In this document: positions 3,731-33,561 of the stretch, piece by piece
How the letters are laid out: every line of letters starts with the position of its first letter
How positions within the stretch are numbered: position 1 is the stretch's first letter
NCBI GenBank assembly: GCA_944388895.1
Contig: CALXKR010000003.1
Location: 1-33,561 of the forward strand
Origin: an uncultured Clostridia bacterium
GTDB lineage: Bacteria > Bacillota > Clostridia > TANB77 > CAG-508
Direction of reading: 5' to 3'
Length of the DNA: 33,561 nt
The notes under the pieces: model-generated
Seen by the model: only the letters and a program-made list of their open reading frames with translations
Databases searched by the model: none
What the model was told of the DNA's origin: nothing
Translations under genes and position numbers: made by a program

Positions 3731-5296
3731 TTATTCTTGTCTGAACCATTCATTAAAATTATAATACAAATTATAACTGTTAGGTGTAAAAGTCCCACCA
3801 ACATTTTCATTAAGTAATAGTGTGTTTTTATTTCTGTATAATCCTATATATGGTACATCTTCATTAACAATTTTTTGAATTTCTGTATAGTTTTCTAGTG
3901 AAGATAATTTTGATTTCAAATCACTATTATTGTAATTTGCTATATTTCCATCTCCATAGAAATATGATAAATCTGGATTTACTGAATTAGTAACTCCTGT
4001 TAATATCATTTGATAATTTTTATTGTTTAAATATTCATAGTATTTTTCATTACTAACTTCTACAATATTAACTGTTATACCTATTTGTGCTAATTGCCTT
4101 TTAATTTCATTTGCTACATTTATTCTGTCTTGATTATCTTTACATACTACTAAAGATAATGTAAGTCTTCTTACATATCCATCAATACTTTTTTGCCATT
4201 TATCATTTTTATATATCCAACCAGCTTGCTCTAAAGTGCTTTTAGCTTTATCTTGATTATAGCTGATTTCCCCTTCTGCTGAATATAAATAACTTCCATA
4301 GTCTAAAGGAGAATTAGATACATAGCAATTGTTAGAAAATACATTAGAAACTAATATATTTTTATCTATTGCATAATTTATTGCTTGTCTAACTGCTTTA
4401 TCATTAAGAATTATATCATCACAATTAAAACTTATAAAGTCATAATTTCTTCCATCGTATTCTTTTTTGTTATATCCCATATTTCCTACATATTCTGAGT
4501 AATTAGTACTTGAAGTATTTACTATATCTATATTGCCTAATTTAAAACTGTTGTAAATTTCTCCCATTGTTCCAAATTGCTTAATAGTTATAGATTGAGC
4601 TTTTGGAGTTTTTTCTTTTATATGTCTCCATTTATCATTTCTAGTAAGCAAAATTGTACTGCTATCTATGCTTGCAATTTTGTACATACCTGTTCCTATT
4701 GGAATTTTATTTGTTGCAACAAAGTCTTCATTTAAGTAATACATACTTGGTAAAATTGGAAAAGTTAAATTATATTCAAAAAATGGTACTGGTTTTGTTA
4801 AATTTATAATAACAGTTTCCGTATCTGGAGTTTCTACACTTTGAATATCTTTTACATTTGCTGAATAAACAGTGTTTCTTTCTTTTAACCTATCTATTGT
4901 AAAAGCTACATCTTTTGCAATTAAACTACTACCATCTTGCCATTTTATAGATGTATCAATTTTTATTTCATATCTAGTATCATTTGTTTTTGTACAAGAT
5001 TTAGCTAGGCACATTTCAAGTTTATAATCTGATGTAATTGTAATAAGAGGCTCAAAAATTAATTTATCAATATTTATAATCTCTTTATTATTAGTAAGTA
5101 AAGGATTCATCGTATCATAATTACAAATTCCCATTGTAAGTTTGTCTAATATTTGAACTTCTCCTACCTGAGACTGTTTATCAGTTTCTTGTTGCTCAGT
5201 TTTTTGTTTTTGGTTATACAGTATATATGCAGCTCCTATTATTAAAATAATTATAAATATAATAAAAATATATTTAAATACATTGTTATTTTTCAT
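3731..5296 (-). CDS. Peptide/nickel ABC transporter substrate-binding protein (family 5), TM-anchored
   Basis: TMNPLL, LIFEPL, KWQDG..L.AKDVAFT, PIGTGMYK, VRQAINYAID, AKSTLEQAGW; N-terminal TM helix. Confidence 0.88.
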   Translation of the reverse strand: MKNNNVFKYIFIIFIIILIIGAAYILYNQKQKTEQQETDKQSQVGEVQILDKLTMGICNYDTMNPLLTNNKEIINIDKLIFEPLITITSDYKLEMCLAKSCTKTNDTRYEIKIDTSIKWQDGSSLIAKDVAFTIDRLKERNTVYSANVKDIQSVETPDTETVIINLTKPVPFFEYNLTFPILPSMYYLNEDFVATNKIPIGTGMYKIASIDSSTILLTRNDKWRHIKEKTPKAQSITIKQFGTMGEIYNSFKLGNIDIVNTSSTNYSEYVGNMGYNKKEYDGRNYDFISFNCDDIILNDKAVRQAINYAIDKNILVSNVFSNNCYVSNSPLDYGSYLYSAEGEISYNQDKAKSTLEQAGWIYKNDKWQKSIDGYVRRLTLSLVVCKDNQDRINVANEIKRQLAQIGITVNIVEVSNEKYYEYLNNKNYQMILTGVTNSVNPDLSYFYGDGNIANYNNSDLKSKLSSLENYTEIQKIVNEDVPYIGLYRNKNTLLLNENVGGTFTPNSYNLYYNFNEWFRQE

Positions 5297-5367
5297 AATT
5301 TGCTCCCTACCTTGCCTACATATAATATATTAAAAATTTATTTTTTTCAATACTTTATAAAAAAATA

Positions 5368-5393
5368 GGCATGTAAATTTTATTACACATGCC
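5368..5393 (-). terminator. Probable intrinsic terminator after spoVS
   Basis: GGCATGT...ACATGCC inverted repeat with a U-tract on the minus strand. Confidence 0.55.
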
Positions 5394-5408
5394 CCCATAT
5401 TTTATATA

Positions 5409-5669
5409 TTATCTTGACTCTACAATAAGCCTTATTCCTGTTCTATCTTCACCTTCAACCTCAACTTCTGCAAAGGCTGGTATACAAATTAAATCTACTC
5501 CTGTTGGCGCAACAAAACCTCTTGCTATTGCCACTGCCTTTACTGCTTGATTTAGCGCTCCTGCTCCAATTGCTTGCATTTCTGCCTTTCTTGTTTCTTT
5601 TACCATTCCAGCGATTGCTCCTGCTACTGAATTTGGATTTGATTTTGATGAAATTTTTAAGACTTCCAT
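5409..5669 (-). CDS. spoVS: Stage V sporulation protein S
   Basis: MEVLKISSKSNPNSVAGAIAG...QAIGAGALNQAVKAVAIARGFVAP.G.DLICIPAF. Confidence 0.97.
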   Translation of the reverse strand: MEVLKISSKSNPNSVAGAIAGMVKETRKAEMQAIGAGALNQAVKAVAIARGFVAPTGVDLICIPAFAEVEVEGEDRTGIRLIVESR

Positions 5670-5801
5670 TTTTTCCTCCCTTAATTTTTATTTGTTTGTA
5701 ATTACGAATATATTTATATACCATTTTTTGGTAGTTGTCTAGTATTTTTTTCAAAATTAAGGAAGTTTTCATCGACATTTTTTTACATATTTTGTCAGTT
5801 T

Positions 5802-6566
5802 TTATATATTTATTCTATATATTTCCTTTGTTCGACAATTATTGACATCTATATCAAATATTATTCCATTTAATATACTATTTCCTTCTGCTAATTTATA
5901 TTTTTCTGGAAGAGAAGTTATAAATCTTTTTAATGAAGCTTTTATATCCATACCTATAACAGATTTTTCAGGTCCTGTCATTCCTATATCAGTAATATAC
6001 CCTGTTCCATTTTCTAATATTTTTTCATCTGCTGTTTGTACATGTGTATGTGTTCCAAACATAGCAGAAATTCTTCCATCTACATAATATCCCATTGCAA
6101 TTTTTTCTGCAGTAGCTTCTGCATGAAAGTCTAATATTTTTATATCAGCTTCTATGTTTTTTAATAAGTTATCTATGCAAGTAAATGGATTGTCAGATAG
6201 TACTCCCATATCAGTTCTTCCTATTAAATTTATTACAGCAACTTTAATACCATTTTTTTCTATAACAGTATAGCCTTTTCCTGGAACTCCTTTTGAATAA
6301 TTTGCAGGTCTAATTATTTTAGGATTGTCAATAAAAGTAAATATATCTTTCTTACCCCATGTATGATTTCCCATAGTAATAACATCTATGTTTAACTTGT
6401 TTAATTCATTAAAGTTTTTTGTTGTCATTCCCATTCCACTGGCTACGTTTTCACCATTTACAATTGTAAAATCTATATTCTCTGCTTCTTGCAAATTTTG
6501 TAAATTCTTTTTTAATTTTTCTAGTCCACTTTCTCCAACTAGGTCTCCTATTGCCAAAATTTTCAA
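5802..6566 (-). CDS. ymdB: YmdB-family metallophosphoesterase (TIGR00282-like)
   Basis: GDLVG, NGEN, TMGNHTW, DFHAEATAEK, GTHTHVQTAD, TDIGMTG; rny-ymdB-spoVS synteny. Probable TTG start at 6566 behind GGAGG. Confidence 0.93.
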   Translation of the reverse strand: MKILAIGDLVGESGLEKLKKNLQNLQEAENIDFTIVNGENVASGMGMTTKNFNELNKLNIDVITMGNHTWGKKDIFTFIDNPKIIRPANYSKGVPGKGYTVIEKNGIKVAVINLIGRTDMGVLSDNPFTCIDNLLKNIEADIKILDFHAEATAEKIAMGYYVDGRISAMFGTHTHVQTADEKILENGTGYITDIGMTGPEKSVIGMDIKASLKRFITSLPEKYKLAEGNSILNGIIFDIDVNNCRTKEIYRINI

Positions 6567-6661
6567 AACAATTACCTCCATAGTTTTTGTATTATTTTAT
6601 CACGTAATTATATTTCGCACAATACTTAGATTGTTATTTTTTTGAAAAAGGAACGTCCCTC

Positions 6662-6696
6662 ATCAAAAAAAGCGCTCCATTGGAACGCTTTTTGAT
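6662..6696 (-). terminator. Intrinsic terminator after rny
   Basis: AAAAAAAGCGCTCC-ATT-GGAACGCTTTTT imperfect hairpin with U-tract. Confidence 0.65.
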
Positions 6697-6698
6697 AA

Positions 6699-8240
6699 TT
6701 ATTTTGCATAGTCAATTACTCTTTTTTCTCTAATCATGTTGATTTTAATTTGTCCTGGATAATCCATTTCATTTTCAACTTTTTCTGCTATATTTCTAGC
6801 CATTATTGTCATTTCATCATCTGATATTTTTTCAGGTTTTACAATAATTCTTATTTCACGACCAGCTTGTATAGCATAAGATTTTTCTACTCCTTCAAAA
6901 GAATCTGCAATAGATTCTAGTTGTTCTAGTCTCTTGATATAAGCATCTAATGTTTCTCTTCTTGCTCCTGGTCTTGAAGCTGAAATTGCATCTGCTGCTT
7001 GTACCAAATATGCTTCTGGAGTTTGAGGTTCTACATCTCCATGATGAGCTTCTACTGCATTTATAATTCTAGCATCTTCTTTGTATTTCTTTAATATTTC
7101 TACTCCTATTTCTACATGAGTTCCTTCCATGTCATGGTCTAAAGCTTTTCCTATATCATGTAGTAATCCTGCTCTTCTTGCAAGTTTAGTATCTAGTCCT
7201 AATTCGTCTGCCATAATTCTTGCTAAATTAGAAACTTCAATTGAATGATTTAATACATTTTGACCATAGCTTGTTCTGTATTTTAATTTTCCTAATAGTT
7301 TTACAATATCTGGATGAAGGTTAAGCACTCCTGTTTCCATAACTGCTCTTTCCCCTTCTTCTTTGATAGTTTTAGCAACTTCTTCTTTTGCCTTTTCTAC
7401 CATTTCTTCGATTTTAGCTGGATGAATTCTTCCGTCATCTATAAGCTTTTGTAAAGCTATTCTTGCAACTTCTCTTCTTAAAGGATCAAAACCAGAAATA
7501 ACAACTGCTTCTGGAGTATCATCTATTATAAAATCTACACCTGTTAAAGTTTCTAAAGCTTTAATATTTCTACCTTCTCTACCAATAATTCTTCCTTTCA
7601 TATCATCGCTAGGAAGTGCAACTATTGATACAGTTGATTCAGAAGTGTGATCTGCTGCACATTTTTGAATTGCATAAGTAATAACGTTTCTTGCTGTTTC
7701 TTCTGACTTTTCCTTTATTTGGTCTTCCATAGCTTTAATACGTTCAACTTTTTCAGTTGTAAGCTTTTCATCAACCTTTGCCAATAATTGATTTTTGGCT
7801 TCATCAATTGATAGTCTTGCAATTCTTTCTAGTTCATCTAATTGTGAGTCTTTTAACTTTTGAACCTCCATCTTTTCATTTTCGATTTCATCTTCTCTTT
7901 TGTCTAATTGCTTTTCTTTTTGTTCTGCAGAGTAGATTTTCTTTTCTAGATTTTCCTCTTTTTGTAATAATCTTTTTTCTTGTAATTGAATATCACTTCT
8001 TCTTTCTCTAATCTCTTCCTCTAGTTCGTTTCTACTATTAATAATTTGCTCTTTTGCCTTAACTATTTCCTCTTTTCTTGTATTTTCTGCTTCTTTTTTA
8101 GCATTTTCTAATATTCTTTGTGCTTCTCTTTCTGCACTTTGAATTTTTGCTTCAGCAGATTTTTTTCTAACCATGTATCCTATAACTGAAAATATTATTG
8201 CTGAGACTAGAAAAATAGTGATATAAATTGCTAATTGCAT
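6699..8240 (-). CDS. rny: Ribonuclease Y
   Basis: N-terminal TM, coiled coil, KH motif [14 protein letters not shown] motif [11 protein letters not shown] 8240 behind AGAGGTG (ORF track GTG 8249). Confidence 0.98.
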
Positions 8241-23929: not shown

Positions 23930-23960
23930 AATCTCCCCCGGGGCTGACCCGGGGGAGATT
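23930..23960. terminator. Strong GC-rich hairpin downstream of the tRNA fragment
   Basis: AATCTCCCCCGGG-GCTGA-CCCGGGGGAGATT, perfect 13-bp stem. Confidence 0.6.
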
Positions 23961-24018: not shown

Positions 24019-24065
24019 TGGAGCCACCAGCGAGAATCGAACTCGCGACCTACAGGTTACGAACC
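24019..24065 (-). pseudogene. 3' half of a tRNA-Thr(CGT); att-like site at the integrase end of the island
   Basis: Minus strand GG-TTCGTAA-CCTGT-AGGTC-GCGAG-TTCGATT-CTCGC-TGGTGGC-T-CCA; no D-arm or 5' acceptor strand upstream. Confidence 0.88.
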
Positions 24066-24175
24066 AATAGGTATTGTTTTTAGCTCGCATATAAATATTT
24101 TTTTATTTCAGTCGCTAAAGTTATTCATATTAGTGACTTTTATCATATCACATAATTAAAATTTTATCTACCTTT

Positions 24176-25489
24176 TTATGCAATTTTTCTAATAATTCTG
24201 ATTTTTCCCTTTATTTTCCCTTTATAAATAATTGGTGTTTTCTTTTCTTCTTTCAGGATATTATTCTTATAAAATTCTTCTATTTTTTTATTTTCTTCTT
24301 TTTCAAATTCAATTAATAAATGGGTATATCTATCTGTCATTCTTGAAGTTGAATGTCCTAATAATTTTTGCAAATATTTTACAGAAATTCCAGCTTCTAA
24401 ACATCTTGTAGCAAAGGTATGTCTTAATTGATGTACTCCTATATGTCTAAATCCAATCTGTTTTAAATATCTACTTAATTTTGTCCATAAAAAATCTGCT
24501 TTAATTCTATTGCCTTTGCTTGTCAAAAAAAGAGGTTTTCCCTTAAGTTCTGCTATAGACTTTATGTTATTAACTTTCATATATTCTTCTCTATATTTTT
24601 TTAATAACTCATATGCTCCAAATAGCATTGGTATTTTTCTTACACTACTCTCTGTTTTCAAATCACTTTCTTCAACTGTATTTTTTTGTCTTTTTAATTC
24701 TTCAGTGAATAGTGCAGTACAAACTAAACCATTTCTAACCATTACTATTCTATTTTTAAAATCTATATCATCCCAGTCAGAACCTGCTGCTTCACTTGCT
24801 CTTTCTCCTGTTTTTAGTAAAAACAAATAAACTGTAAATTCATATTTATGTGCAAGTAAATTTTCAAATTCTCTTTGTTCTTCTCTTGACATTATTTCTG
24901 GTTCTTTAACTCTTAATTTAGGTGGATCTACTTTTTGCACACAATTACTTTTTAATAAATTATTTTTTATTGCCGCTTCAAAAGCCATATTTAGAACACA
25001 ATATGTATCTTTTATTGTTTTAGGTGCTAACTGTTTTTTAGTAGTTTTACATTGTCCTGTTTTCATTTTAGTCAATATTTGTTGAATATGAATAGGTTGT
25101 ATCTTTTGTAATTCATATTTTCCTATTTCAGGAACAATATATTTTGTGATTGCAATAATATAGGAACTTAAAGTGTTATTATTGACTACTCCTCTTTTAT
25201 ATGTATTTATCCACTTTTTTAGCCATTCTTCTACAGTTATGTTATTACTTAAAATATAAGAATTATTTTCAGATTCATTTTTTATTTGAGCCATTTTTTG
25301 AATAACTACTCTTTTATCCTTGTCGCTGACAGATACTTGTTTTTTTATTCCATCAATTTCTATTGTAACTCTTCCTTCATATGAGTTACCTTTTTTTCTA
25401 ATTGACCCTTCGCCTTTATTTCTTCTTTTCACATCACCTAATTTCTTTTTACTCTTTTTTTCTTTTATATCATTTTTTTCTTTACTCAC
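24176..25489 (-). CDS. int: Tyrosine integrase (phage/ICE type with arm-binding and SAM-like domains)
   Basis: RRNKGEGSIRK N-terminus, TVEEWL..W, catalytic TGERASE (R), LKTESS (K), HQLRHTFATR, LGH, MTDRY. Likely GTG start 25489 behind GAGGTG (ORF track 25552). Confidence 0.93.
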   Translation of the reverse strand: MSKEKNDIKEKKSKKKLGDVKRRNKGEGSIRKKGNSYEGRVTIEIDGIKKQVSVSDKDKRVVIQKMAQIKNESENNSYILSNNITVEEWLKKWINTYKRGVVNNNTLSSYIIAITKYIVPEIGKYELQKIQPIHIQQILTKMKTGQCKTTKKQLAPKTIKDTYCVLNMAFEAAIKNNLLKSNCVQKVDPPKLRVKEPEIMSREEQREFENLLAHKYEFTVYLFLLKTGERASEAAGSDWDDIDFKNRIVMVRNGLVCTALFTEELKRQKNTVEESDLKTESSVRKIPMLFGAYELLKKYREEYMKVNNIKSIAELKGKPLFLTSKGNRIKADFLWTKLSRYLKQIGFRHIGVHQLRHTFATRCLEAGISVKYLQKLLGHSTSRMTDRYTHLLIEFEKEENKKIEEFYKNNILKEEKKTPIIYKGKIKGKIRIIRKIA

Positions 25490-25589
25490 TAAAATCACCT
25501 CGTAAATATGTTTTAGTAGAGTTAGAATATATTTGTACTTATTATTATACATCTATTCTTCTACTAAAAAAAGCTCAAAAAAAATTTTT

Positions 25590-25994
25590 TTAATATTTAA
25601 TAAAATTCCCTATATTCTTGGTCATCCAGTCATTTATTCCTAATTTATTTATTAAAATTCTTCTCTTAAATTTCACACATGGGAAATCAGGCAATTTTAC
25701 GAGTTCGGCAACTAACTGTTTACTTACTCCTAAATATTCTGCACATTCTTCTATAGTCATTCCTATTTTTTCAATCCCTGTATTTATTGTTATTTTATTT
25801 TTTCCTTCTTTTATTAATATTTCTTTCATTAGTTTCATTAACATATTCTCATCTTTATATACTTCAAACATAGTTCTTATTTCTTCAATTACATCTTCAA
25901 CTGTTCTCTCTTTATTAGCACTATGAAAAATGCTATGAAATGCCATTACTATATAGCCTATACAGCATTCTCTGTTTATATAAATTCTTTCCAT
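25590..25994 (-). CDS. Excisionase-like HTH_17 protein with a ~75-aa N-terminal extension
   Basis: C-terminal MTIEECAEYLGVSKQLVAELVKLPDFPCVKFKRRILIN...NDWM; directly upstream of int; GGAGG RBS. Confidence 0.8.
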   Translation of the reverse strand: MERIYINRECCIGYIVMAFHSIFHSANKERTVEDVIEEIRTMFEVYKDENMLMKLMKEILIKEGKNKITINTGIEKIGMTIEECAEYLGVSKQLVAELVKLPDFPCVKFKRRILINKLGINDWMTKNIGNFIKY

Positions 25995-26013
25995 ATTTTT
26001 ATTCCTCCATTAT

Positions 26014-26038
26014 AAAAAGCCAGTATATAACCTGACTT
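26014..26038 (-). terminator. Weak terminator-like hairpin in front of the excisionase
   Basis: Minus strand AAGTCAG-GTTATATA-CTGGCTT-TTT. Confidence 0.45.
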
Positions 26039-26201
26039 ATTTAGTATTTTTATATTTTTTATTTTTATAATCCCTTAAAAAATTTACCTGTTCTTGATCT
26101 TCCATCATTAGTTCCTTTTCTGATTTATTTTTGTTTCCACCAATTATCACACAAAACATACTTGTTCCAATTAATATTAGTATCAAAATTAATATAAACA
26201 T
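26037..26201 (-). CDS. 54-aa single-TM small protein (not in ORF track)
   Basis: MFILILILILIGTSMFCVIIGGNKNKSEKELMMEDQEQVNFLRDYKNKKYKNTK; GGAGGT RBS at 26206-26211. Confidence 0.7.
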   Translation of the reverse strand: MFILILILILIGTSMFCVIIGGNKNKSEKELMMEDQEQVNFLRDYKNKKYKNTK

Positions 26202-26211
26202 TATTACCTCC

Positions 26212-26563
26212 GACTTTTAGTGTTTTAATTCATTAAATGGTAATCAGCTACATTACTCCTCAGGAATCTAACCTATCTGAACTCAGACTTGTTTTCATTG
26301 CTTGGGACGGTTCTTTCTCGCTCGTGCTATGACTAAACAAGAGTATTATTATTCATCTTTATTAGTTATCGCCTTATCAGTTGCTAACTGATATTTAAGT
26401 TTTATAGTTCTGCATCTATAAATTAAACTAGCTCTTAATAAAGTGTTTATTTAACGAATGTTATTCAATTTTCAATGTGCTTTTTATTCTCAAAATAGAA
26501 ATAAGTGAAAGAGTTTTCTTACCCCTTCACTTATTTGCTCACAAAATTTGATTTTGTCCCCCC
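26212..26563 (-). ncRNA. Putative structured cis-acting RNA with a boxA-like element
   Basis: ORF-free region with a 15-bp hairpin (26499-26536), GCACATTGAAAATTGAATA (26462-26480), stems at 26375-26393, 26288-26341 and 26276-26287, and a T-loop-like AGGTTAGATTCCT. Confidence 0.55.
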
Positions 26564-27019
26564 CTATTTTTCAAAAAATTTTTTTATTTTTTTCAAACCT
26601 AGTTGAAGACTCTTTTCTATTTGCTTTTTTTGAACCATTTCTATTTTAGCTAAATCTCTTATTGTAATTTCATTTACTATGTGTAAATCTATTCTTCTAT
26701 ATTGAGCTTCTGTAAGATTTTGCATTGCTTGATTTACTTTTTTTCTCTCTATATTTTTTATAACCGTTTCTTCTACACTTTCCACTGGATCAAAAGCTCT
26801 TTTATATATTTCTTCATCAGTTAATGAAGAATGTTCTAAATATCTACTTGTTTCATTTTTTATCTTTGTATAAGCTTTTTTTGATTTCATATATGTATCA
26901 AATATTTCCTTATCAATTTCAATTCTACAGTCTTGGTTGGCACTATCTACAAATGATATGTAATATTTATCTTCATCCTCTATATATTCTAAAGTATAAC
27001 TATCTACTTCGTATTGCAC
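26564..27019 (-). CDS. Sigma-70 region-4 (ECF/Tn916 Orf7-like) transcription factor
   Basis: SVEETVIK..ERKKVNQAMQNLTEAQYRRI.L....TIRDLAKIE.VQKKQIEKSLQLGLKKIKKF; GTG start behind AGGAGG. Confidence 0.78.
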   Translation of the reverse strand: MQYEVDSYTLEYIEDEDKYYISFVDSANQDCRIEIDKEIFDTYMKSKKAYTKIKNETSRYLEHSSLTDEEIYKRAFDPVESVEETVIKNIERKKVNQAMQNLTEAQYRRIDLHIVNEITIRDLAKIEMVQKKQIEKSLQLGLKKIKKFFEK

Positions 27020-27034
27020 TGTCCTTCCTCCTAT

Positions 27035-27223
27035 TCATTTCAAATTTTTTGAAATGAATTTAGGTGGGCTACGACAGTGAAGTTCTATAGTACAAAAAAA
27101 ATCAAGTACACATGAAATAACTGCATACTTGATTCGTAAAAAAAGACATAATAATCTTTTAAGGACATATTTTAATATATTAAATTTGCTATATGTAATA
27201 TTATTAGTCAAACCTTTTAACAT
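27035..27223 (-). CDS. 62-aa leader ORF ending in RSPP (putative ribosome-arrest peptide)
   Basis: AGGAG RBS 6 nt before ATG; ...IELHCRSPPKFISKNLK; stop codon lies inside a hairpin adjoining the SD of the sigma gene. Confidence 0.6.
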   Translation of the reverse strand: MLKGLTNNITYSKFNILKYVLKRLLCLFLRIKYAVISCVLDFFCTIELHCRSPPKFISKNLK

Positions 27224-27496
27224 ATAAAACTCCTAAAAGAAAATTGACTTAACAATTTCTAAAAGGAGTTTTTATTTTTTAGGGGATATTATTAACTCAT
27301 CAAAGTCCGAAATATTTATTGTAATTTTCTTTTGTTCTTCATAATTCTTTTGATTAGCCTCCTTTTCAGACCTTGATTAAGTTGATTAGATTATATTTTC
27401 TTTTAGGTCTTTTGTGATAGTTGGGTTAAAAAGGGCTATAAAAAGGTAAAAAAAGGCTACTACTTTTTGCTTTTGGCATATATTTCCATTTTAATA

Positions 27497-27525
27497 TTGA
27501 TTTTACATAATATTTGTGATATAAT
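27497..27525 (+). promoter_or_regulatory. sigma-A promoter of the Spo0A-like gene
   Basis: TTGATT (27497-27502), 17 bp, TATAAT (27520-27525) with extended -10 TG. Confidence 0.65.
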
Positions 27526-27559
27526 ATCCTCATATTTAAAGCATTTGTGGAGGTTTGCA

Positions 27560-28276
27560 ATGTTAAAAGTTCTAGTAGCTGATGAAAATCATGCAGCAAA
27601 CTTAGATTGCTGTCAATATCTAGCAAATGATAAAAACCTCGATGTACTAAGTACAAATAGTGGAATTAATACTATAAATGCATATAATAATTTTCATCCT
27701 AATGTATTAGTAATAAATTCTGACTTTAAGGATAGGAGTTATACTGAAATACTCAATGAACTTTCTTCTACATCACTTGAAAGACAAAAAACCAATGTAA
27801 TCCTTACTGTAGAAGATAATGGGAAAAGAATTGAATTAGATTTCATGGCTAAAGTTTATAAGTTGTTTTATTCTGTTGACTATGAAAAAATTAGAGAAGG
27901 AATAGAACAATATAACTTAGATAATGTGATTTTTTATGAGCCAAACGAGAAAACTTTAAGTGCATTGTTTTATAAATTGAATTTGTATAACGAACAAACT
28001 GGAGCTAGTTATCTAAAATATGCCATTATACAATCTTATAATAACCAAACATCAACAAAGACCTTAAATGACATTTTTAGTTTAGTTTCCAAAGCATTTA
28101 ATGTTTCCTATAAATCTGTTAGACCTGCAATGAGAAATGCTCTAAAATCTGTAAATAATTATAGAAAAAAATGTGGTAATACTGGGATTTTTAAACTGTT
28201 TGAAAATGAAGACTCAATTACTCCAAAAAATTTTATAAAAATTATAACTAGATATTATATAAAACAAAAAAAATAA
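27560..28276 (+). CDS. Spo0A-like regulator: pseudo-receiver plus Spo0A C-terminal DNA-binding domain
   Basis: MLKVLVADEN...HPNVLVIN receiver fold; GASYLKYAI...DIFSLVSKAFNVSYKSVRPAMRNAL...TPKNFI aligns by eye with Spo0A_C. ATG 27560 behind GGAGG (ORF track 27467). Confidence 0.75.
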   Translation: MLKVLVADENHAANLDCCQYLANDKNLDVLSTNSGINTINAYNNFHPNVLVINSDFKDRSYTEILNELSSTSLERQKTNVILTVEDNGKRIELDFMAKVYKLFYSVDYEKIREGIEQYNLDNVIFYEPNEKTLSALFYKLNLYNEQTGASYLKYAIIQSYNNQTSTKTLNDIFSLVSKAFNVSYKSVRPAMRNALKSVNNYRKKCGNTGIFKLFENEDSITPKNFIKIITRYYIKQKK

Positions 28277-28310
28277 AAGAAATAAGTAATTATTGAAACT
28301 TATTTCTTTT
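28275..28310. terminator. Bidirectional terminator between the Spo0A-like and radical SAM genes
   Basis: AAAAGAAATAAGT-N10-ACTTATTTCTTTT. Confidence 0.7.
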
Positions 28311-28315
28311 TTATT

Positions 28316-29497
28316 TTATTGGTATTTATACTCTTTATATGCTTCTATAATATCTTTTGCTGTTCCAGCATAAGGTTCTCTTACACAAGCATTTAATTTG
28401 TTATCTGTAATATTTATAACTTCCATTAATTCATTATCAGGTATTTCTCCTATTGTACTGAAACTAGGAAATTGGTCTTGTAATTTTTCTTTTGTCTTTC
28501 TTATAAGTTCTAATCCAGACATATTTGAAAAATTATATTTAGAAAATACTAATTCTGGTTTTAATTCTACTATTTTTTTATATGTATCAATTCCATCACA
28601 AGCTATTCCCACTATATTAATATACTCTAAACTAGAGATAGAATTTACTATTGCTTCTCTTATTGTATCATCATTATGAGCAACGATAGTCCTTATTTTT
28701 CTTGTTTCTGTATCTAATTTATTAATTAAAAATTCCAAATTTTCTTGTTGTAAAGCGTTTGCGAAATACTTATCTTTTCCATTTTGAGTTTGTATAATAT
28801 CTGCATTTGGAAGAACTACCATACTTTTTTCAAATTCACTTTGTTTTTTATATTGAATTATTTTAATATTCTCAAATGTTTTTATTTCTCTTACTTTATT
28901 TTCTAATTCATCTTCAGATATTTCAAATGTTTCCTTGTTTACTAAAGCTTTCTCTCTAATAGGCATAAATTTAAGAAATTTCCACTTTTCAATCTTATAC
29001 TTATTTAAAAATTCTCCTAATTCCTCTAATTGATTTATATTCTTTTTACTAACAACTGTATTAATACCAACTTTTATCTTTTTATTCTTAGTTTTTTCTA
29101 ATAGATTTTTGATTATTTCAAAGTGGTTATCTTCTTTACCTAATGACTTATTTATTTCATTATCAATTGAATCTATTGATAGATTTATTTCATCTAAAAT
29201 ATTTAAAATATCTTCAACATACTCATTATCATTTTTTGATAGAAAAATTCCATTTGTTACTAATTTATTGTGTACTCCATTTAACTTAGAAATTCTCATA
29301 AGCTCATTTACTCTAGGATATAATACTGCTTCTCCACCAGTCCAAGTAATATGGTTTATTCCATTCTGTATTAAATTATTTAATACTTTTTCATTTTCTT
29401 CAAATGATAAATCTTCAATATTATTAAAACCAAAGCAATATTTACAATTTTGATTACATCTTGTAGTTATTTTCCAACATACTTTTTGTTTACTCAT
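28316..29497 (-). CDS. Radical SAM enzyme (viperin/MoaA-like fold) fused to a C-terminal pseudo-receiver domain
   Basis: CNQNCKYC (CxxxCxxC), TGGE, VTNG, SIDS, INTVV, KWK; C-terminal [11 protein letters not shown]...VGIACDG...KPELVFSK...MSGLELI. ATG 29497 behind AGAAAGG. Confidence 0.85.
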
Positions 29498-29741
29498 GTA
29501 TATCAACCTTTCTCTACTATTTGACATAATAATTATACATTAGTATTTGATGTATGTACAGTTGGAATTTTCTAATGGTCATTTCATTTTATCAAACCCA
29601 CTAATATAAATATATTTAACTTCTTTATATTTGAGTTTATAGTTAGTGATGAAAAATTATTTTATACCTGCCTCTTTTTTATCAATTTGTCGAGATGAAT
29701 TGTATCTCATAATTAAACATTAGGTTTGTTTTTATATATTT

Positions 29742-30305
29742 TTATTCTTCACTAATTCTTTCATATTTTATAGCATTAATTTGAGCTGGATATGTTGTCA
29801 TTATAACTCCATCATAAGTTACCTTTATTCTTTCTCCGATCTTATATTTTACATTAGTATCAATTTTTAATTTCTCTACCATTATTAAATCTGCTGATTT
29901 TTTTATTTCTTCATTTTCATCTGGTTCAACAAAAAATAAGTTTTCTTCTACTTGTGTTATTGTGCCACCAAATGAATATTCACTGTTTTTCATTTCTTTT
30001 TCAAATCTTTTCTCATATTCTTTCATTTCTTCTTCAAAGTCATTGTAATCCATAAACCAGCTACCTATTTTTATGTCATCATATCCCGCTAATGTATGGA
30101 AATCAATTACTTTATATCCTAATCCAAAATATTCTATTGTTCCTCCATCCATATATATTCCTGCAAGATTACGAATACAAAATATTGGATTCTTTCCATT
30201 TTTTACTTTGTTGTAATCAACCACAAAAAATATTAACCCTAAAATAATTACAATTCCTAGTACACAACCAATAATCTTTAATCCTTTTTTCATAAATCCC
30301 CTCAA
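29742..30305 (-). CDS. Membrane-anchored protein with C-terminal YobA/DUF3221-like domain
   Basis: N-terminal TM; DGGTIEYFGLGYKVI; C-terminal GERIKVTYDGVIMTTYPAQI. Start may be ATG 30293. Confidence 0.6.
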   Translation of the reverse strand: MRGFMKKGLKIIGCVLGIVIILGLIFFVVDYNKVKNGKNPIFCIRNLAGIYMDGGTIEYFGLGYKVIDFHTLAGYDDIKIGSWFMDYNDFEEEMKEYEKRFEKEMKNSEYSFGGTITQVEENLFFVEPDENEEIKKSADLIMVEKLKIDTNVKYKIGERIKVTYDGVIMTTYPAQINAIKYERISEE

Positions 30306-30455
30306 TTTACCTTTCTTTTAAAATTTAATAATAGCGATAACTTACTATTTTATAGCATTATATCATAAATAAAAAAATCACTCTATACTTTTTCGTATAA
30401 AGTAATTTAAAATTATATCTAATAAACAAAGAAATTGGTTCAGTTAATCTTATAA

Positions 30456-31334
30456 CTATATTTCTAAATATTTTTTAATAAAAATCTTATCTATCTTTGT
30501 TAGATATTTTTCTATATAAATCAAATTAATGTTAACTTCAGGTAATTTTATTGGTAATTTTATTTCATAAAGTTCTCTTTTATTTAATGCTTCTTCTACT
30601 GCCTCTTTCATAACATATCCTATTCCTTGCCCTTGTCTTACTTCTTCAATTCTCATTTCAGTATTATCACATTGTATATCTGCTTTTATTTCTACATTAT
30701 TTTCTCTTAATACTTCAAATAATCTTTTAGTTGAAGTAGATTCCTTGTAATTTAATATGTACTTATATTGTTCCATTTCCTTAAGGTCCTTTATTTCTAT
30801 CAATTCATTAGAAATAAAAATATTATTAATCTTTTTTAAAGTTTTTATAATAAGTTCGTTATTTATATTATCTGGAACAGTATCTATTATTACAAAATCA
30901 ATTATATGCCTTTGTAACAATTGTAATAAACCATTATAGTCTGCTACACTTACTATATCTATTTTTAAATCAGGATAATCATTTCTTACTTTCGTTATAC
31001 ATTTTGATAAATAAAATATTGATATATGAGAAGGACAACCAATTGTAATTTTTGCCTTAGAAATATCATAGTTTTGAATTATTGCATTTTCTGCAAATTC
31101 AAGATCTTTAATTTTGTTATGCATAGAATCATATAGTTCTTTTCCTGCTTCAGTTAGTACTAGACCATCTCTTTCTCTATAAAACAATATTATATCTAAT
31201 TTTTTTTCTAAATTTGTTATATGAGAACTAATCGTCGACTCTGTTAAATATAATTTGTCACTTGCTTCTTTATAATTTTTTGATTCTGCTACTACACAGA
31301 AAATCTTATATAAATTCAAATTAGTATCGCTCAT
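30456..31334 (-). CDS. LysR-family transcriptional regulator
   Basis: NLNLYKIFCVVAE...ASDKLYLTESTISSHITNLEKKL...LFYR...GLVLTEAG; ATG 31334 directly after the CYTH stop. Confidence 0.92.
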   Translation of the reverse strand: MSDTNLNLYKIFCVVAESKNYKEASDKLYLTESTISSHITNLEKKLDIILFYRERDGLVLTEAGKELYDSMHNKIKDLEFAENAIIQNYDISKAKITIGCPSHISIFYLSKCITKVRNDYPDLKIDIVSVADYNGLLQLLQRHIIDFVIIDTVPDNINNELIIKTLKKINNIFISNELIEIKDLKEMEQYKYILNYKESTSTKRLFEVLRENNVEIKADIQCDNTEMRIEEVRQGQGIGYVMKEAVEEALNKRELYEIKLPIKLPEVNINLIYIEKYLTKIDKIFIKKYLEI

Positions 31335-31335
31335 T

Positions 31336-31923
31336 CTATGCACCACCTAATAAAATATTTTTTAATACAATTTCTGCTTTTTTTACAAAATAATCATTAG
31401 TATCTATTGGAAGTTCTAATTGTTTTACTTTATATTTTATTTTTTCTATGGTATCTAATTCTTTATTATCTTCTACAGTTTCAATTTCAATTAATTTTTC
31501 GCCATTTTCTATATCTTTAATTGTAATTTTAAAATCATCTCTCTTATAAGATTTATCATATTCTTTTATATTCATTAATTCTTTATAGCCTATTGCCTCA
31601 ATAAATGCTTTGCCTGCCTCTGCATCTAAAATTTCACAATTGACTTTGCTTTGTTTTAATATATTACCTTTATCATCTATTTGCTTATTTTTGAAAGTTA
31701 ATTTTACTACTTTTCGTTCAGGTATAAATTCTGTAATATTTCTTAATAGTATAGCCTTACTTAATATGTCTCTGTAACTCATATCTTTTAAATCTAATTC
31801 CTTCGGTATAAAATATGTATCATCTAAAATAAATTTTTCTATTATTTTGAAGTTTTTATCTTCTAATATATTGCCAATTTCTTTTATGCTACATTTTAAT
31901 CTTACTGTTATTTCATTACTCAC
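31336..31923 (-). CDS. CYTH / triphosphate tunnel metalloenzyme-like protein
   Basis: NEITVRLK, DDTYF, ILLR, KLTFK.K, FIEAIGY, LIEIE motifs; GTG start with AGGAG RBS. Confidence 0.65.
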   Translation of the reverse strand: MSNEITVRLKCSIKEIGNILEDKNFKIIEKFILDDTYFIPKELDLKDMSYRDILSKAILLRNITEFIPERKVVKLTFKNKQIDDKGNILKQSKVNCEILDAEAGKAFIEAIGYKELMNIKEYDKSYKRDDFKITIKDIENGEKLIEIETVEDNKELDTIEKIKYKVKQLELPIDTNDYFVKKAEIVLKNILLGGA

Positions 31924-32260
31924 AACAATTTTCTCCTATTATATTTGGATTCTCAATACTATTATATTATACCATATTATGTAAATTTTGTAAACTTTTT
32001 GGCTATTTCTTATACTTTATAAACTGTTTCTATTTCTAAACAATATTTTAGTATTATATTTTTTAGATTTTTGTCAAATTAAAATAAAGCATATATCTCA
32101 TTATAAAAAAAAATGACCCAAGACTTCGAAAGTTTCTTGGATACCGCTCATATATATATTACAATATTCTTTGTGAAAAATCAAGGAAATTTTATAATAT
32201 TTACAATATTTGCAATATTCAAAAAATAATTTGATTATCAACATAGCATAAATCTAAAGT

Positions 32261-32333
32261 TTATCAATAATTTTTATAAAACTATTGATAATTTTATAGA
32301 AATAGCATATAATATAAGTAAGGAAAGTAAGGA
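32261..32333 (+). promoter_or_regulatory. TA operon promoter and operator
   Basis: TTGATA (32285-32290), 17 bp, TATAAT (32308-32313); tandem AAGTAAGGA x2 (32316-32333); TTATCAATA/TATTGATAA inverted repeat overlapping the -35. Confidence 0.65.
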
Positions 32334-32353
32334 AAAAGAAAGGATGTGATTTT

Positions 32354-32611
32354 ATGGAATTAGCAAAAATAACTACAAAAGGTCAGGTAACTATTCCAAA
32401 ATCAATAAGAGAATTATTAGATTTAAAAGAAGGAAGTAAAATTCTTTTTATTCAGAAAGGAAAAGATATAGTTATTCAAAATGCTGCAATGCTTGCTTTA
32501 GAAAAGATTCAAAAATCTTTTGATGGCGAAGCAGAAAGACTTGGTTTAGAAACAGAAGAAGATGTTGTAAAAATGATAAAAGAATTTAGAAAAAATAGAA
32601 AGAAGGATTAG
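32354..32611 (+). CDS. AbrB/MazE/SpoVT-family antitoxin
   Basis: AKITTKGQVTIPKSIRELLDLKEG..ILF. Confidence 0.9.
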   Translation: MELAKITTKGQVTIPKSIRELLDLKEGSKILFIQKGKDIVIQNAAMLALEKIQKSFDGEAERLGLETEEDVVKMIKEFRKNRKKD

Positions 32612-32612
32612 T

Positions 32613-33011
32613 ATGAGAGTAATGCTAGATACAAATATTCTTATTTCTGCATTCGTATTTAAGAGCAAAAAGATGAATGAACTAATCCATAAACTTTCCA
32701 AAGAGCACGAAATAATAATTTGCTCATATACAGTTCAGGAACTAAAAGAATTAATAGATACAAAATTTAAAGTAAGTCTAAAAGATTTAGATGAATTTTT
32801 AAAAGACTTCCCGTTTGATTTAGTTTATTCTCCAATGCATGTAGAGAATAAACTATTTGAAATTAGAGATAAAGATGATTATATAATTCTACATACAGCA
32901 ATAATAGAAGATGTTGATGTATTTATAACAGGTGATAAAGATTTTGATAATGTAGATGTAGACAAACCAGAAATTATGAATGCTACTGAATTTTTAGAAA
33001 AATTTTGTTAG
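32613..33011 (+). CDS. PIN-domain (VapC-like) toxin
   Basis: MRVMLDTNILISA, RDKDD..IL..A, FITGDKDF; 1 nt after the antitoxin stop. Confidence 0.9.
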   Translation: MRVMLDTNILISAFVFKSKKMNELIHKLSKEHEIIICSYTVQELKELIDTKFKVSLKDLDEFLKDFPFDLVYSPMHVENKLFEIRDKDDYIILHTAIIEDVDVFITGDKDFDNVDVDKPEIMNATEFLEKFC

Positions 33012-33021
33012 AAAATTTTAT

Positions 33022-33057
33022 AAGCTCTAAAATCTAGAATAATAGATTTTAGAGCTT
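33022..33057. terminator. Bidirectional terminator between the TA operon and tRNA-Thr(CGT)
   Basis: AAGCTCTAAAATCTA-GAATAA-TAGATTTTAGAGCTT, 15-bp perfect stem. Confidence 0.75.
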
Positions 33058-33087
33058 TTTATAAAATATACTTACTTTAAAGCTATA

Positions 33088-33163
33088 TGGAGCCACCAAG
33101 CAGAATTGAACTGCTGACCTTTGAATTACGAATTCACTGCTCTACCAACTGAGCTATGGTGGC
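33088..33163 (-). tRNA. tRNA-Thr (anticodon CGT)
   Basis: GCCACCA-TA-GCTCAGTTGGTAGAGC-A-GTGAA-TTCGTAA-TTCAA-AGGTC-AGCAG-TTCAATT-CTGCT-TGGTGGC-T-CCA; 76 nt, G27:A43 mismatch. Confidence 0.94.
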
Positions 33164-33174
33164 AAATCATTAAT

Positions 33175-33203
33175 ATTATAGTATATGACATCCAAAAAAT
33201 CAA
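33175..33203 (-). promoter_or_regulatory. sigma-A promoter of tRNA-Thr(CGT)
   Basis: TTGATT (33198-33203), 17 bp, TATAAT (33175-33180). Confidence 0.65.
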
Positions 33204-33227
33204 GCAATTCAGTTAAATATTTCTTAT

Positions 33228-33533
33228 TTAATTTTTTACCATATTAAGTATATTATTTCCAATTTCATTTGCATACTTTTTATATTTTTCTGCAAATTCT
33301 TTACAAGAAACTTCTACTATTTCATCTCCAATATTAATTTTAATTGTATCCATTTTAATTACATTTGACATACCAAATGATACTATTAATAAACAACATT
33401 TCTCAAATACTGCTTTTCCATAGTCTACTAGATTTCCTTTATTGCTTTCTTTTGATACTTCTTTAATGAATTTACAATATAAATCATCTCCTAATAATTT
33501 GTTTGCTATGTATGCATAATTAACATCTTTCAT
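33228..33533 (-). CDS. Hypothetical protein
   Basis: 101-aa ORF with GGAGGT RBS; no family recognised. Confidence 0.65.
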   Translation of the reverse strand: MKDVNYAYIANKLLGDDLYCKFIKEVSKESNKGNLVDYGKAVFEKCCLLIVSFGMSNVIKMDTIKINIGDEIVEVSCKEFAEKYKKYANEIGNNILNMVKN

Positions 33534-33561
33534 ATTCTTGTACCTCCATCTTTTCTTTTAT

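Follow-up and report, generated by a model that had tools for sequence, protein, structure and literature searches.

Elements of the Tn916 type are vehicles of resistance and other cargo; how they are switched on, by Sig7-8 and canT, was elucidated only in 2024-2026. In Tn916, Orf7 and Orf8 are described as a split sigma factor that autoactivates its promoter, that excision depends on and whose overproduction is toxic (bioRxiv 10.64898/2026.10.01.756105). Antitermination is reported as demonstrated for canT of Tn916, which is abolished by deletion of 162 bp and inactivated by a 3-bp change of ATA to TGC at +283; the same paper says that the RNA structure was not pursued (PMC11658703). Among arrest peptides with an Arg-x-Pro-Pro (RxPP) motif, RAPP and RGPP are reported to arrest most readily (PMC12992588; PMC10951233), and RDPP and RSPP to be partially permissive and under-represented in proteomes, particularly those of Bacillota (PMC12992588). 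Here we describe a locus in which counterparts of both systems appear side by side. It lies on a stretch of 33,561 nucleotides from an uncultured Clostridia bacterium of the chicken gut (hereafter the window), which is the entire 33.6-kb contig of a metagenome-assembled genome (MAG; G000) of 1.3 Mb with 26% G+C and 87.7% completeness.

Read away from a divergent gene for a Spo0A-like regulator, the minus strand of the window carries a leader open reading frame (ORF) with Arg-Ser-Pro-Pro near its end, a sigma-like gene homologous to region 4 of Orf7, an RNA homologous to canT, a small membrane ORF, a xis-like gene and a tyrosine integrase gene homologous to that of Tn916. The parts, their order and the designs of the RNAs are conserved among relatives, and attachment (att) sites are present at both island junctions. 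We consider it likely that this region is the regulatory and recombination module of an island, that it is a relative of the orf9/orf7-orf8/canT/xis/int end of Tn916, and that it works by the mechanism of stalling, antitermination and excision set out below.

The sigma-like gene and its leader

The sigma-like ORF has no Pfam match, and some of its close homologues carry PF08281. With TIGR02937 the score is 33 bits, below the cut-off of 42.9, and the match begins at position 52 of the profile. When the family profile was aligned to Orf7 of Tn916 (pCF10), hhalign gave a probability of 86% (E 5e-06) over 64 columns confined to region 4; pairwise BLASTP of the protein against Orf7 reached E 0.011. 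In the AlphaFold2 model (predicted local distance difference test score 79.3) the N-terminus forms three strands and a long helix, for which Foldseek found no structural match, and the best Foldseek rows all correspond to sigma region 4 (E 0.01-0.1, 57-78 columns; none at E up to 0.001). An SD (Shine-Dalgarno) hairpin also precedes orf7 in Tn916.

Over the translation start of the sigma-like gene a helix is predicted that none of 200 shuffles could fold as well. Its pairings join the Pro-Pro codons of the leader (27067-27062) to the SD sequence AGGAGG (27032-27027), and a His codon CAC (27079-27077) to the start codon GTG (27019-27017). We searched 53 related loci for the leader motif (CGN or AGR)-NNN-CCN-CCN and found it in 50 of them, about 40 nt 5' of the GGAGG that precedes the sigma-like gene; some genomes contribute twice to this count, and the loci are all kin. 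The background in the MAG is 51 occurrences in 2.6 Mb of both strands, or 0.0039 per 200 nt. Across loci the Arg is encoded by CGT, CGC, CGA, AGA or AGG and the Pro residues by all four codons, so it is the peptide that is conserved and not the bases. In 37 non-redundant sequences the x residue is S in 20, G in 7, D in 6 and A in 4, and these four residues account for 7 of the 51 genome-wide occurrences in any frame. The length of the leader varies from 19 to more than 70 codons, and the distance from motif to SD sequence is constant.

For the SD helix, per-sequence folding took the place of column-wise covariation on the MAFFT alignment. In the same 37 relatives at least four of the five SD bases are paired in 36, they are paired with the Pro codons in 21, and z is below -3 in 36; moreover, CAC accompanies GTG starts and CAT accompanies ATG starts in most group members. 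The design of this RNA is thus conserved in the sequences themselves, and the structure is a computed one.

These observations suggest that the leader is a RAPP-type arrest peptide on which ribosomes would stall at Arg-Ser-Pro-Pro. It is unlikely, in our view, that the leader serves plain translational coupling, with Arg-x-Pro-Pro as a by-product of a CCNCC anti-SD sequence and no programmed arrest. The Pro-Pro codons are themselves the anti-SD sequence, many leader stops fall within or just before the 3' arm of the helix (stop-to-SD distance 0-18 nt or overlapping), and Tn916 manages with an SD hairpin and no RxPP. Coupling, however, leaves unexplained an Arg placed exactly two codons upstream in almost all loci through five synonymous codings, the restriction of x in 37 of 37 sequences to the four residues whose variants are named as arrest-competent or partly so in PMC12992588, and a reading frame of CCNCCN that is Pro-Pro in every case.

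Two further observations concern the leader transcript. The 5' untranslated region (UTR) of about 160 nt ahead of the leader (27224-27385, minus strand) is strongly conserved and folds into a long-range helix and the 17-bp-arm hairpin of Table 1 (dG -35.2, z -2.5); it may add another level of control or bind a protein. A conserved TGTCGT within the leader was considered as a Spo0A "0A-box" and rejected, as relatives have TGTAGA at that place.

A canT-like RNA ahead of the recombination genes

Between the sigma-like gene and the RNA there is no gene at all. The sigma-like gene is followed directly by a terminator-like hairpin, T1, which is kept in the alignment of relatives with compensatory changes; in the region three terminator-like sites were found against 0.9 expected from shuffles. 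The segment of about 275 nt after T1 stays conserved where sigma-like proteins share only 25-35% identity, and an nhmmer profile built from it matches 42 other loci. The same profile matches canT of Tn916/Tn925 on pCF10 (41925-41813, E 1.3e-11), at 280-392 nt past the orf8 stop, within the published 452-nt canT region and over the 162-bp deletion. The published inactivating change maps to the first bases of ATAATGATAC, a block that hardly varies in our alignments. No Rfam family was found for the spacer RNA at the gathering threshold or at E up to 5, and blastn of the spacer against plasmids gave no match.

RNAalifold, applied to 27 sequences including Tn916, predicted 34 pairs, with compensatory changes in 29. 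Across the alignment 95.8% of cells pair, compared with 80.7% in shuffles and 28-43% for slid partners, and 0 of 500 shuffles reach the observed value on any of five measures. The long-range closing helix shows compensatory changes in seven of its nine pairs. Since G-U pairs are frequent, the RNA is placed on the sigma-coding strand. By profile match and predicted fold, the spacer is a homologue of canT, the antiterminator RNA of Tn916. A second terminator-like hairpin, T2, follows the RNA and precedes the xis-like gene, the position at which an antiterminator would be needed.

We regard it as distinctly unlikely that the spacer is instead a 5' UTR that binds a ligand or a protein, or a small RNA of the recombinase operon that acts in trans. 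Such a role would fit the closing helix that encloses several others, a layout typical of riboswitch-like RNAs; a promoter-like sequence (TTGAAA-16-TAAATA) also overlaps the RNA at its 5' end, and T1 comes before the RNA. Yet the covariation of the closing helix means that its 5' strand is transcribed, which rules out a start at the overlapping promoter-like site; in addition, T2 lies downstream of the RNA and ahead of xis/int, and the RNA is homologous to the sole element for which antitermination is reported as demonstrated (PMC11658703).

The possibility that the spacer is an invertible promoter was rejected, since flanking inverted repeats are absent. In two RNA-library runs the sigma-like gene and the canT-int part differ in depth; this was left unused, as contigs cannot show RNA level. 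A separate canT-like match (L026:10670-10784, on G075:C26; E 1.5e-07) lies about 1 kb from a tyrosine integrase gene in a genome without a sigma-like gene; canT-type RNAs may therefore accompany integrases in the absence of the sigma-like protein of the window type.

Recombination genes, island ends and the tRNA-Thr target

The integrase shares 29% identity over 325 aa with the Tn916 integrase, Int-Tn (E 5e-18). The xis-like protein scores 29.5 bits on TIGR01764 "excise" (cut-off 28.8) and has no similarity to Xis-Tn. Its residues 1-75 correspond to a conserved separate gene in most relatives, and residues 75-132, with the HTH_17 domain, match stand-alone xis genes of more distant loci. Because the two parts match different sets of loci, the gene of the window is a fusion. 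No solved relative of the 75-aa domain was found at E below 0.29, and the 54-aa ORF preceding the gene has no family match in the profile libraries searched.

All ORFs and hairpins listed in a first-pass annotation of the window were recovered at the same positions and on the same strands. That annotation had inferred a Tn916-like output module here, and the matches of the RNA to canT, of the sigma-like region 4 to Orf7 and of the integrase to Int-Tn support a relationship to the orf7-canT-xis-int end of Tn916. For Orf8/Sig8 no counterpart was found. Its suggestion of a translational arrest leader gains strong comparative support from the related loci described above.

Host genes, among them recA, the RNase Y gene, spoIIM, ligA, a UPF0182 gene and ftsY, fill positions 1-23780. 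On the attR side the order is the 3' part of a host tRNA-Thr(CGT), a G+C-rich hairpin and then ftsY; ARAGORN called no tRNA at 24019-24063. The hairpin is probably the terminator of the host tRNA gene, in host DNA beyond the island. The other junction, attL, was found on a different contig of the same MAG (G000:C64:~215-305), where the 5' half of the tRNA is followed by an identical 10-nt core and then by non-tRNA DNA; the opposite side of C64 bears suf genes. The core TTCGTAACCT is common to both junctions, intact and perfect. When the two host halves (24019-24063 and C64) were joined by a script, ARAGORN called an intact tRNA-Thr(cgt). A genome of the same genus (G075) has an intact tRNA-Thr(CGT) adjoining ftsY, although in the opposite orientation, and the block is absent at ftsY in three same-genus genomes.

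The stretch was also found in public chicken-gut data (20 runs, 11 studies). Contigs from two runs begin at 24055; contigs from two runs pass unbroken through the tRNA-Thr at 33088-33163, and one run extends 1,060 nt beyond the end of the window. In one contig from each of two runs (X19 and X9, with a shorter side of 19-20 nt), 24063 is joined to a conserved tRNA 5' half with five other letters between, which represents an island-free tRNA. This joint, 24063->33138, was considered as the right end of the island and rejected, because the real attL sits on C64; it shows a relative's island-free tRNA matching the conserved 5' half.

We conclude that the island starts at 24064, continues off the contig and ends at C64, and that window positions 24064-33561 are its integrase-proximal part, inserted in the anticodon loop of tRNA-Thr(CGT). 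Neither contig-end overlaps nor the upstream ORFs of relatives led to any remaining island sequence in the MAG. The insertion splits the host tRNA-Thr(CGT) copy without rebuilding it. We also conclude that the complete tRNA-Thr(CGT) at the far end of the window, which is the sole intact copy among 30 tRNAs called in the MAG, is carried within the island; it differs from the host type in the anticodon and T stems.

Recurrence in related genomes

Database searches at E up to 0.001 gave 278 relatives of the sigma-like protein; at least 120 of them are 67-97% identical and mostly 151 aa long. Its distribution is nevertheless patchy: 19 of 121 genomes sampled from the family carry the gene, as do 41 of 401 genomes of the order, and among same-genus genomes it was found in 0 of 3 in the family sample and 4 of 13 in the order sample. 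No relative of it was found in IMG/VR viral contigs. A divergent Spo0A_C-like gene lies upstream in 28 of the 53 loci, usually with the radical-SAM/receiver fusion or a receiver-only protein, LysR and the CYTH-like gene, and a site-specific recombinase lies downstream on the same strand in 45. The recombinase types are swapped between loci: the 458-aa integrase is found in the window and in L015, and elsewhere its place is taken by other tyrosine integrases, an Xer-like pair with a 109-aa protein, or one to three large serine recombinases. Insertion sites vary as well, from tRNA-Thr (window) to a position beside rho (L009, L010), one inside spoVT (G349) and one by tRNA-Met (L061). The module of relatives often neighbours defence-like cargo (ToxN, BREX, McrBC, AIPR).

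The idea that the block is a fixed chromosomal regulatory cassette controlling cargo, with recombinases as inactive passengers of old insertions, is the least likely of the alternatives weighed here: the order CYTH-LysR-radical SAM-Spo0A-like-leader-sigma is retained across species, sigma-like identity is 64-91% in 12 of 13 genome loci and 56% in the other one, and neither the window nor the flanks of six relatives showed transfer genes, but the distribution within the genus is patchy, insertion sites differ, recombinase ORFs are intact in most loci, the island of the window has a perfect core at both ends, and its CYTH protein is nearer to the L010/L011 copies (73-75% identical) than to same-genus copies elsewhere (45-50%).

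Several claims of the first-pass annotation can be weighed against these results. The gene order recurs and is not unique to this genome, in line with its suggestion of a recurrent island family. Xis and Int are not constant members of that family, as the recombinase module is swapped across loci, and the xis-like gene is itself a fusion of the 75-aa domain with HTH_17. The view that the element is minimal or decayed is not supported, given the intact att core at both ends and an island that runs off the contig. The absence of a relaxase, type IV secretion system (T4SS), rep or cI-like gene, also noted there, agrees with our profile scans of the window, past the end of which the island continues.

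Individual loci add detail. In L052:11791-13980 (G349:C6) the ORF of a large serine recombinase continues in frame into SpoVT_C (E 1.4e-46); this is the only SpoVT_C match in the 98%-complete G349, and G000 and G386 carry ordinary frames of 187-211 aa. The island of G349 appears to lie within spoVT in the manner of a sporulation-gene intervening element. A tRNA-Met lies near the recombinase end of two loci, in full at L061:6844-6920 and as a 65-nt partial copy at L031:5991-6055, which suggests that other members of the family also target tRNA genes. Two distant records, Subdoligranulum variabile "plasmid 6" (L074, ~4897-7840) and a faecal contig filed as Bacteriophage sp. (L075), show an RSPP or RGPP leader, an SD hairpin, a sigma-like gene and one or more serine recombinases downstream; the canT profile has no match at either. 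The Subdoligranulum leader uses the codons CGC TCC CCG CCA on a G+C-rich replicon. From these designs the module extends to G+C-rich Oscillospiraceae and to records filed as plasmid or phage.

The Spo0A-like gene, divergent promoters and cargo

The longer ORF of the Spo0A-like gene spans 27467-28276; the ATG at 27560 is most likely the true start, given that this ORF contains a conserved promoter-like site. A second PF08769 search, run over the genome, gave the protein 33.2 bits. On TIGR02875 the protein scores 16.5 bits against a cut-off of 200. Since a genuine Spo0A (153.9 bits) is present on contig C26 of the MAG, the copy in the window is a divergent paralogue; two further Spo0A_C paralogues occur in the MAG. 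In its receiver-like N-terminal domain the phospho-acceptor position is Asn, and Asp is kept in L009, L014, L049 and L013.

The number of promoter-like sites in the region equals chance (25 found, 25.0 expected), and the site ATCACA-17-TATAAT ahead of the leader is conserved across loci. The T-tract repeat motif upstream of it differs in lineages with divergent Spo0A-like proteins. The 240-bp region between the divergent promoters is, we infer, where the Spo0A-like protein acts.

Beyond the Spo0A-like gene, the radical SAM enzyme carries a C-terminal receiver-like domain without the acceptor Asp and stands tail-to-tail with the Spo0A-like gene in most relatives; L014 and L028 have the receiver part alone in place of the fusion. 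This protein may be half of a sensor/regulator pair or antiviral cargo. The AbrB/MazE-type antitoxin and PIN-domain toxin (32354-33011, plus strand) lie between the CYTH-like gene and the island tRNA and are absent from syntenic relatives.

Table 1. Features of the module, the island end and the neighbouring genes (window positions).
Feature	Position	Strand	Evidence or remark
G+C-rich hairpin	23931..23957	-	read directly and by self-match; just 3' of split host tRNA
Host tRNA-Thr(CGT), 3' part, anticodon loop through CCA	24019..24063	-	attR side
attR core TTCGTAACCT (minus strand)	24054-24063	-	10 nt
Tyrosine integrase, 458 aa	24176..25552	-	Phage_integrase E 8e-27; Phage_int_SAM_3 E 3.6e-10; phrog_1 E 1.4e-63
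xis-like fusion, 134 aa	25590..25994	-	HTH_17 E 1.6e-07, residues 79-127
Terminator-like hairpin T2	26017..26038	-	between small membrane ORF and xis-like gene, 3' of canT-like RNA
54-aa ORF, hydrophobic N-terminus, charged tail	26037..26201	-	tblastn 32-48% identity in related loci
canT-like structured RNA, ~275 nt, long-range closing helix	26205..26480	-	nhmmer and covariation
Terminator-like hairpin T1 with T-run, 16 pairs	26499..26536	-	directly 3' of sigma-like gene
Sig7/Orf7-like protein, 151 aa	26564..27019	-	C-terminus is sigma region 4
Predicted helix over translation start of sigma-like gene	27010..27090	-	dG -26 kcal/mol, z -6.24
Leader ORF, 62 codons, ends ...HCRSPPKFISKNLK	27035..27223	-	Arg-Ser-Pro-Pro codons 27073-27062
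17-bp-arm hairpin over leader's own ribosome-binding site	27226..27272	-	conserved
Promoter-like site ATCACA-17-TATAAT for leader and sigma-like genes	27418-27390	-	
Phased 10-bp T-tract repeats, 3.2 copies	27424-27456	-	just upstream of -35
Promoter-like site, extended -10 (TGnTATAAT), for Spo0A-like gene	27497..27525	+	
Spo0A_C-like regulator, 238 aa	27560..28276	+	PF08769 E 2.2e-07, 31.2 bits, cut-off 25
Radical SAM enzyme fused to receiver-like domain	28316..29527	-	NF038283 (prokaryotic viperin) 116.4 bits, cut-off 180
DUF3221 protein, LysR regulator, CYTH-like protein, AbrB/MazE-PIN pair	29742..33011	.	CYTH and LysR syntenic in relatives
Complete tRNA-Thr(CGT)	33088..33163	-	sole intact copy in MAG
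101-aa ORF	33228..33533	-	travels with island in relatives

Proposed mechanism

In the mechanism that we favour, a sigma-A-type promoter with phased T-tract repeats upstream would give rise to the leader-sigma transcript, and the divergent Spo0A_C-like protein most likely sets the activity of this promoter. On the transcript, the predicted helix would lock the ribosome-binding site and start of the sigma-like gene, its 5' strand being formed by the leader codons for His-Cys-Arg-x-Pro-Pro. A ribosome stalled at Arg-Ser-Pro-Pro would hold this strand, leaving the start site free, so that the Sig7-like protein could be made. The Sig7-like protein, perhaps with a partner, would then turn on promoters of the element, as Sig7-8 does in Tn916. 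Transcripts that pass T1 would carry the canT-like RNA, allowing the polymerase to read through T2 into the xis-like gene and int, and xis/int would in this way come under the control of the upstream regulators. Int and the HTH_17 domain would excise the island at the 10-bp core, restoring the host tRNA, and after excision the canT-like RNA could let the polymerase cross the joint into the far end of the island.

A number of points weigh against this scheme. Stalling, antitermination, promoter use and excision are all deduced from sequence comparison, and the locus counts come from kin that were in part counted twice. Region 2 is undetectable in the sigma-like protein by TIGR02937 or Foldseek, and it may therefore be an activator instead of a sigma subunit. 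No Sig8/Orf8-like partner was found; when the 75-aa domain was compared with Orf8, hhalign gave a probability of 0.4%. In L010 and L014, whose leaders have just 19-21 codons, the hydrophobic N-terminal part is absent, and one mode of sensing therefore cannot apply to every leader. Column-wise covariation of the SD helix on the MAFFT alignment is close to that of shuffles (72.2% paired vs 70.7%), and orf10 of Tn916 has no RxPP ahead of orf7. T1 lies upstream of the canT-like RNA and cannot be overridden by it; transcription can therefore reach the xis/int part only by read-through or from an unseen promoter. The canT profile has no match at the distant loci of int/xis type (L029, L033, L034, L062). 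Finally, no conjugation or replication gene was seen in the window or in the 10-kb flanks of six relatives, and Rep_trans was found in 0 of 5 genomes.

A wider reading, which we put forward tentatively, is that these loci represent a large, as yet unnamed island family in gut Clostridia in which an RxPP arrest peptide triggers a self-activating switch of the Sig7 type. Excision might then be coupled to the state of translation (for example elongation factor P (EF-P), prolyl-tRNA supply or ribosome stress), with the Spo0A-like pseudo-receiver as transcriptional input and the canT-type RNA carrying the signal through terminators. If this is true, the tetracycline-induced ribosome stalling that primes Tn916 would be generalised to an antibiotic-independent mechanism, and canT would gain its first family-wide structure supported by covariation. 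In our literature search we found no RxPP leader on activators of mobile elements, no family-wide canT structure, no Spo0A_C-like partner, and no island that splits a tRNA anticodon loop while bringing a replacement copy.

Three aspects give the locus a wider significance. canT emerges as a widespread RNA family with a conserved fold, whose published inactivating mutation falls on the most conserved block. The sigma-like activator is predicted to be gated by an RxPP leader in most relatives, a class so far found mainly before protein-localisation, metal-handling and extracytoplasmic function (ECF) sigma genes. Furthermore, a single regulatory block is found with recombinases of three kinds and at several insertion sites, one of them a tRNA that is broken and replaced by the island. 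None of these three aspects was described in the papers searched.

Comparison with known systems

The module resembles the regulatory end of Tn916 in its divergent regulator, in a sigma region-4 protein with a hairpin over the ribosome-binding site, in a homologous canT-type RNA between the regulator and the recombination genes, in a related tyrosine integrase and in its outward orientation at the end of the element. It differs in having a Spo0A_C-like regulator where Tn916 has the HTH protein Orf9, and an RxPP leader where orf10 of Tn916 has none. Here the sigma-like gene is directly followed by a terminator and the RNA, and then by the small membrane ORF, and no Sig8 homologue was found; Xis is an HTH_17 domain fused to a 75-aa domain, unlike Xis-Tn. 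There is no tet(M) attenuator, and conjugation genes are not in view in the window. The island is inserted at a specific site, the anticodon loop of a tRNA, with a 10-bp core, whereas Tn916 is described as using AT-rich targets with no fixed site (PMC11658703). With no Sig8 homologue, another Xis, a tRNA target and no conjugation genes in view, the module of the window is a relative of the Tn916 regulatory module and not a strict member of the Tn916 family.

As in the systems of the RAPP/RGPP arrest peptides (ApdA and ApdP, and Streptomyces lividans upstream ORFs, some of them before ECF sigma genes), a small upstream ORF has Arg-x-Pro-Pro near its C-terminus, and the downstream ribosome-binding site lies in a helix that a stalled ribosome could open; the residues at x are among those reported as arresting or partly permissive (PMC10951233; PMC12992588). 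Unlike in those systems, RSPP is the commonest form here (20 of 37), the Pro-Pro codons are the anti-SD sequence, some leaders have only 19-21 codons, and the downstream gene is a regulator of a mobile element and not protein-localisation machinery.

With the split sigma factors (Sig7-8 of Tn916, and SigO-RsoA of B. subtilis) the sigma-like protein shares a short, region-4-only form, encoded in this case by the element and placed to drive its own operon (bioRxiv 10.64898/2026.10.01.756105). It differs in that no region-2 partner was found, and in an N-terminus of three strands and a helix without a structural match.

One regulatory module joined to differing types of recombinase recalls the Tn5397-type variants of Tn916, in which a serine recombinase reportedly replaces xis/int. 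What sets the present family apart from these is that three types of recombinase are found on one conserved block, in islands of uncultured Clostridia with defence-like cargo.

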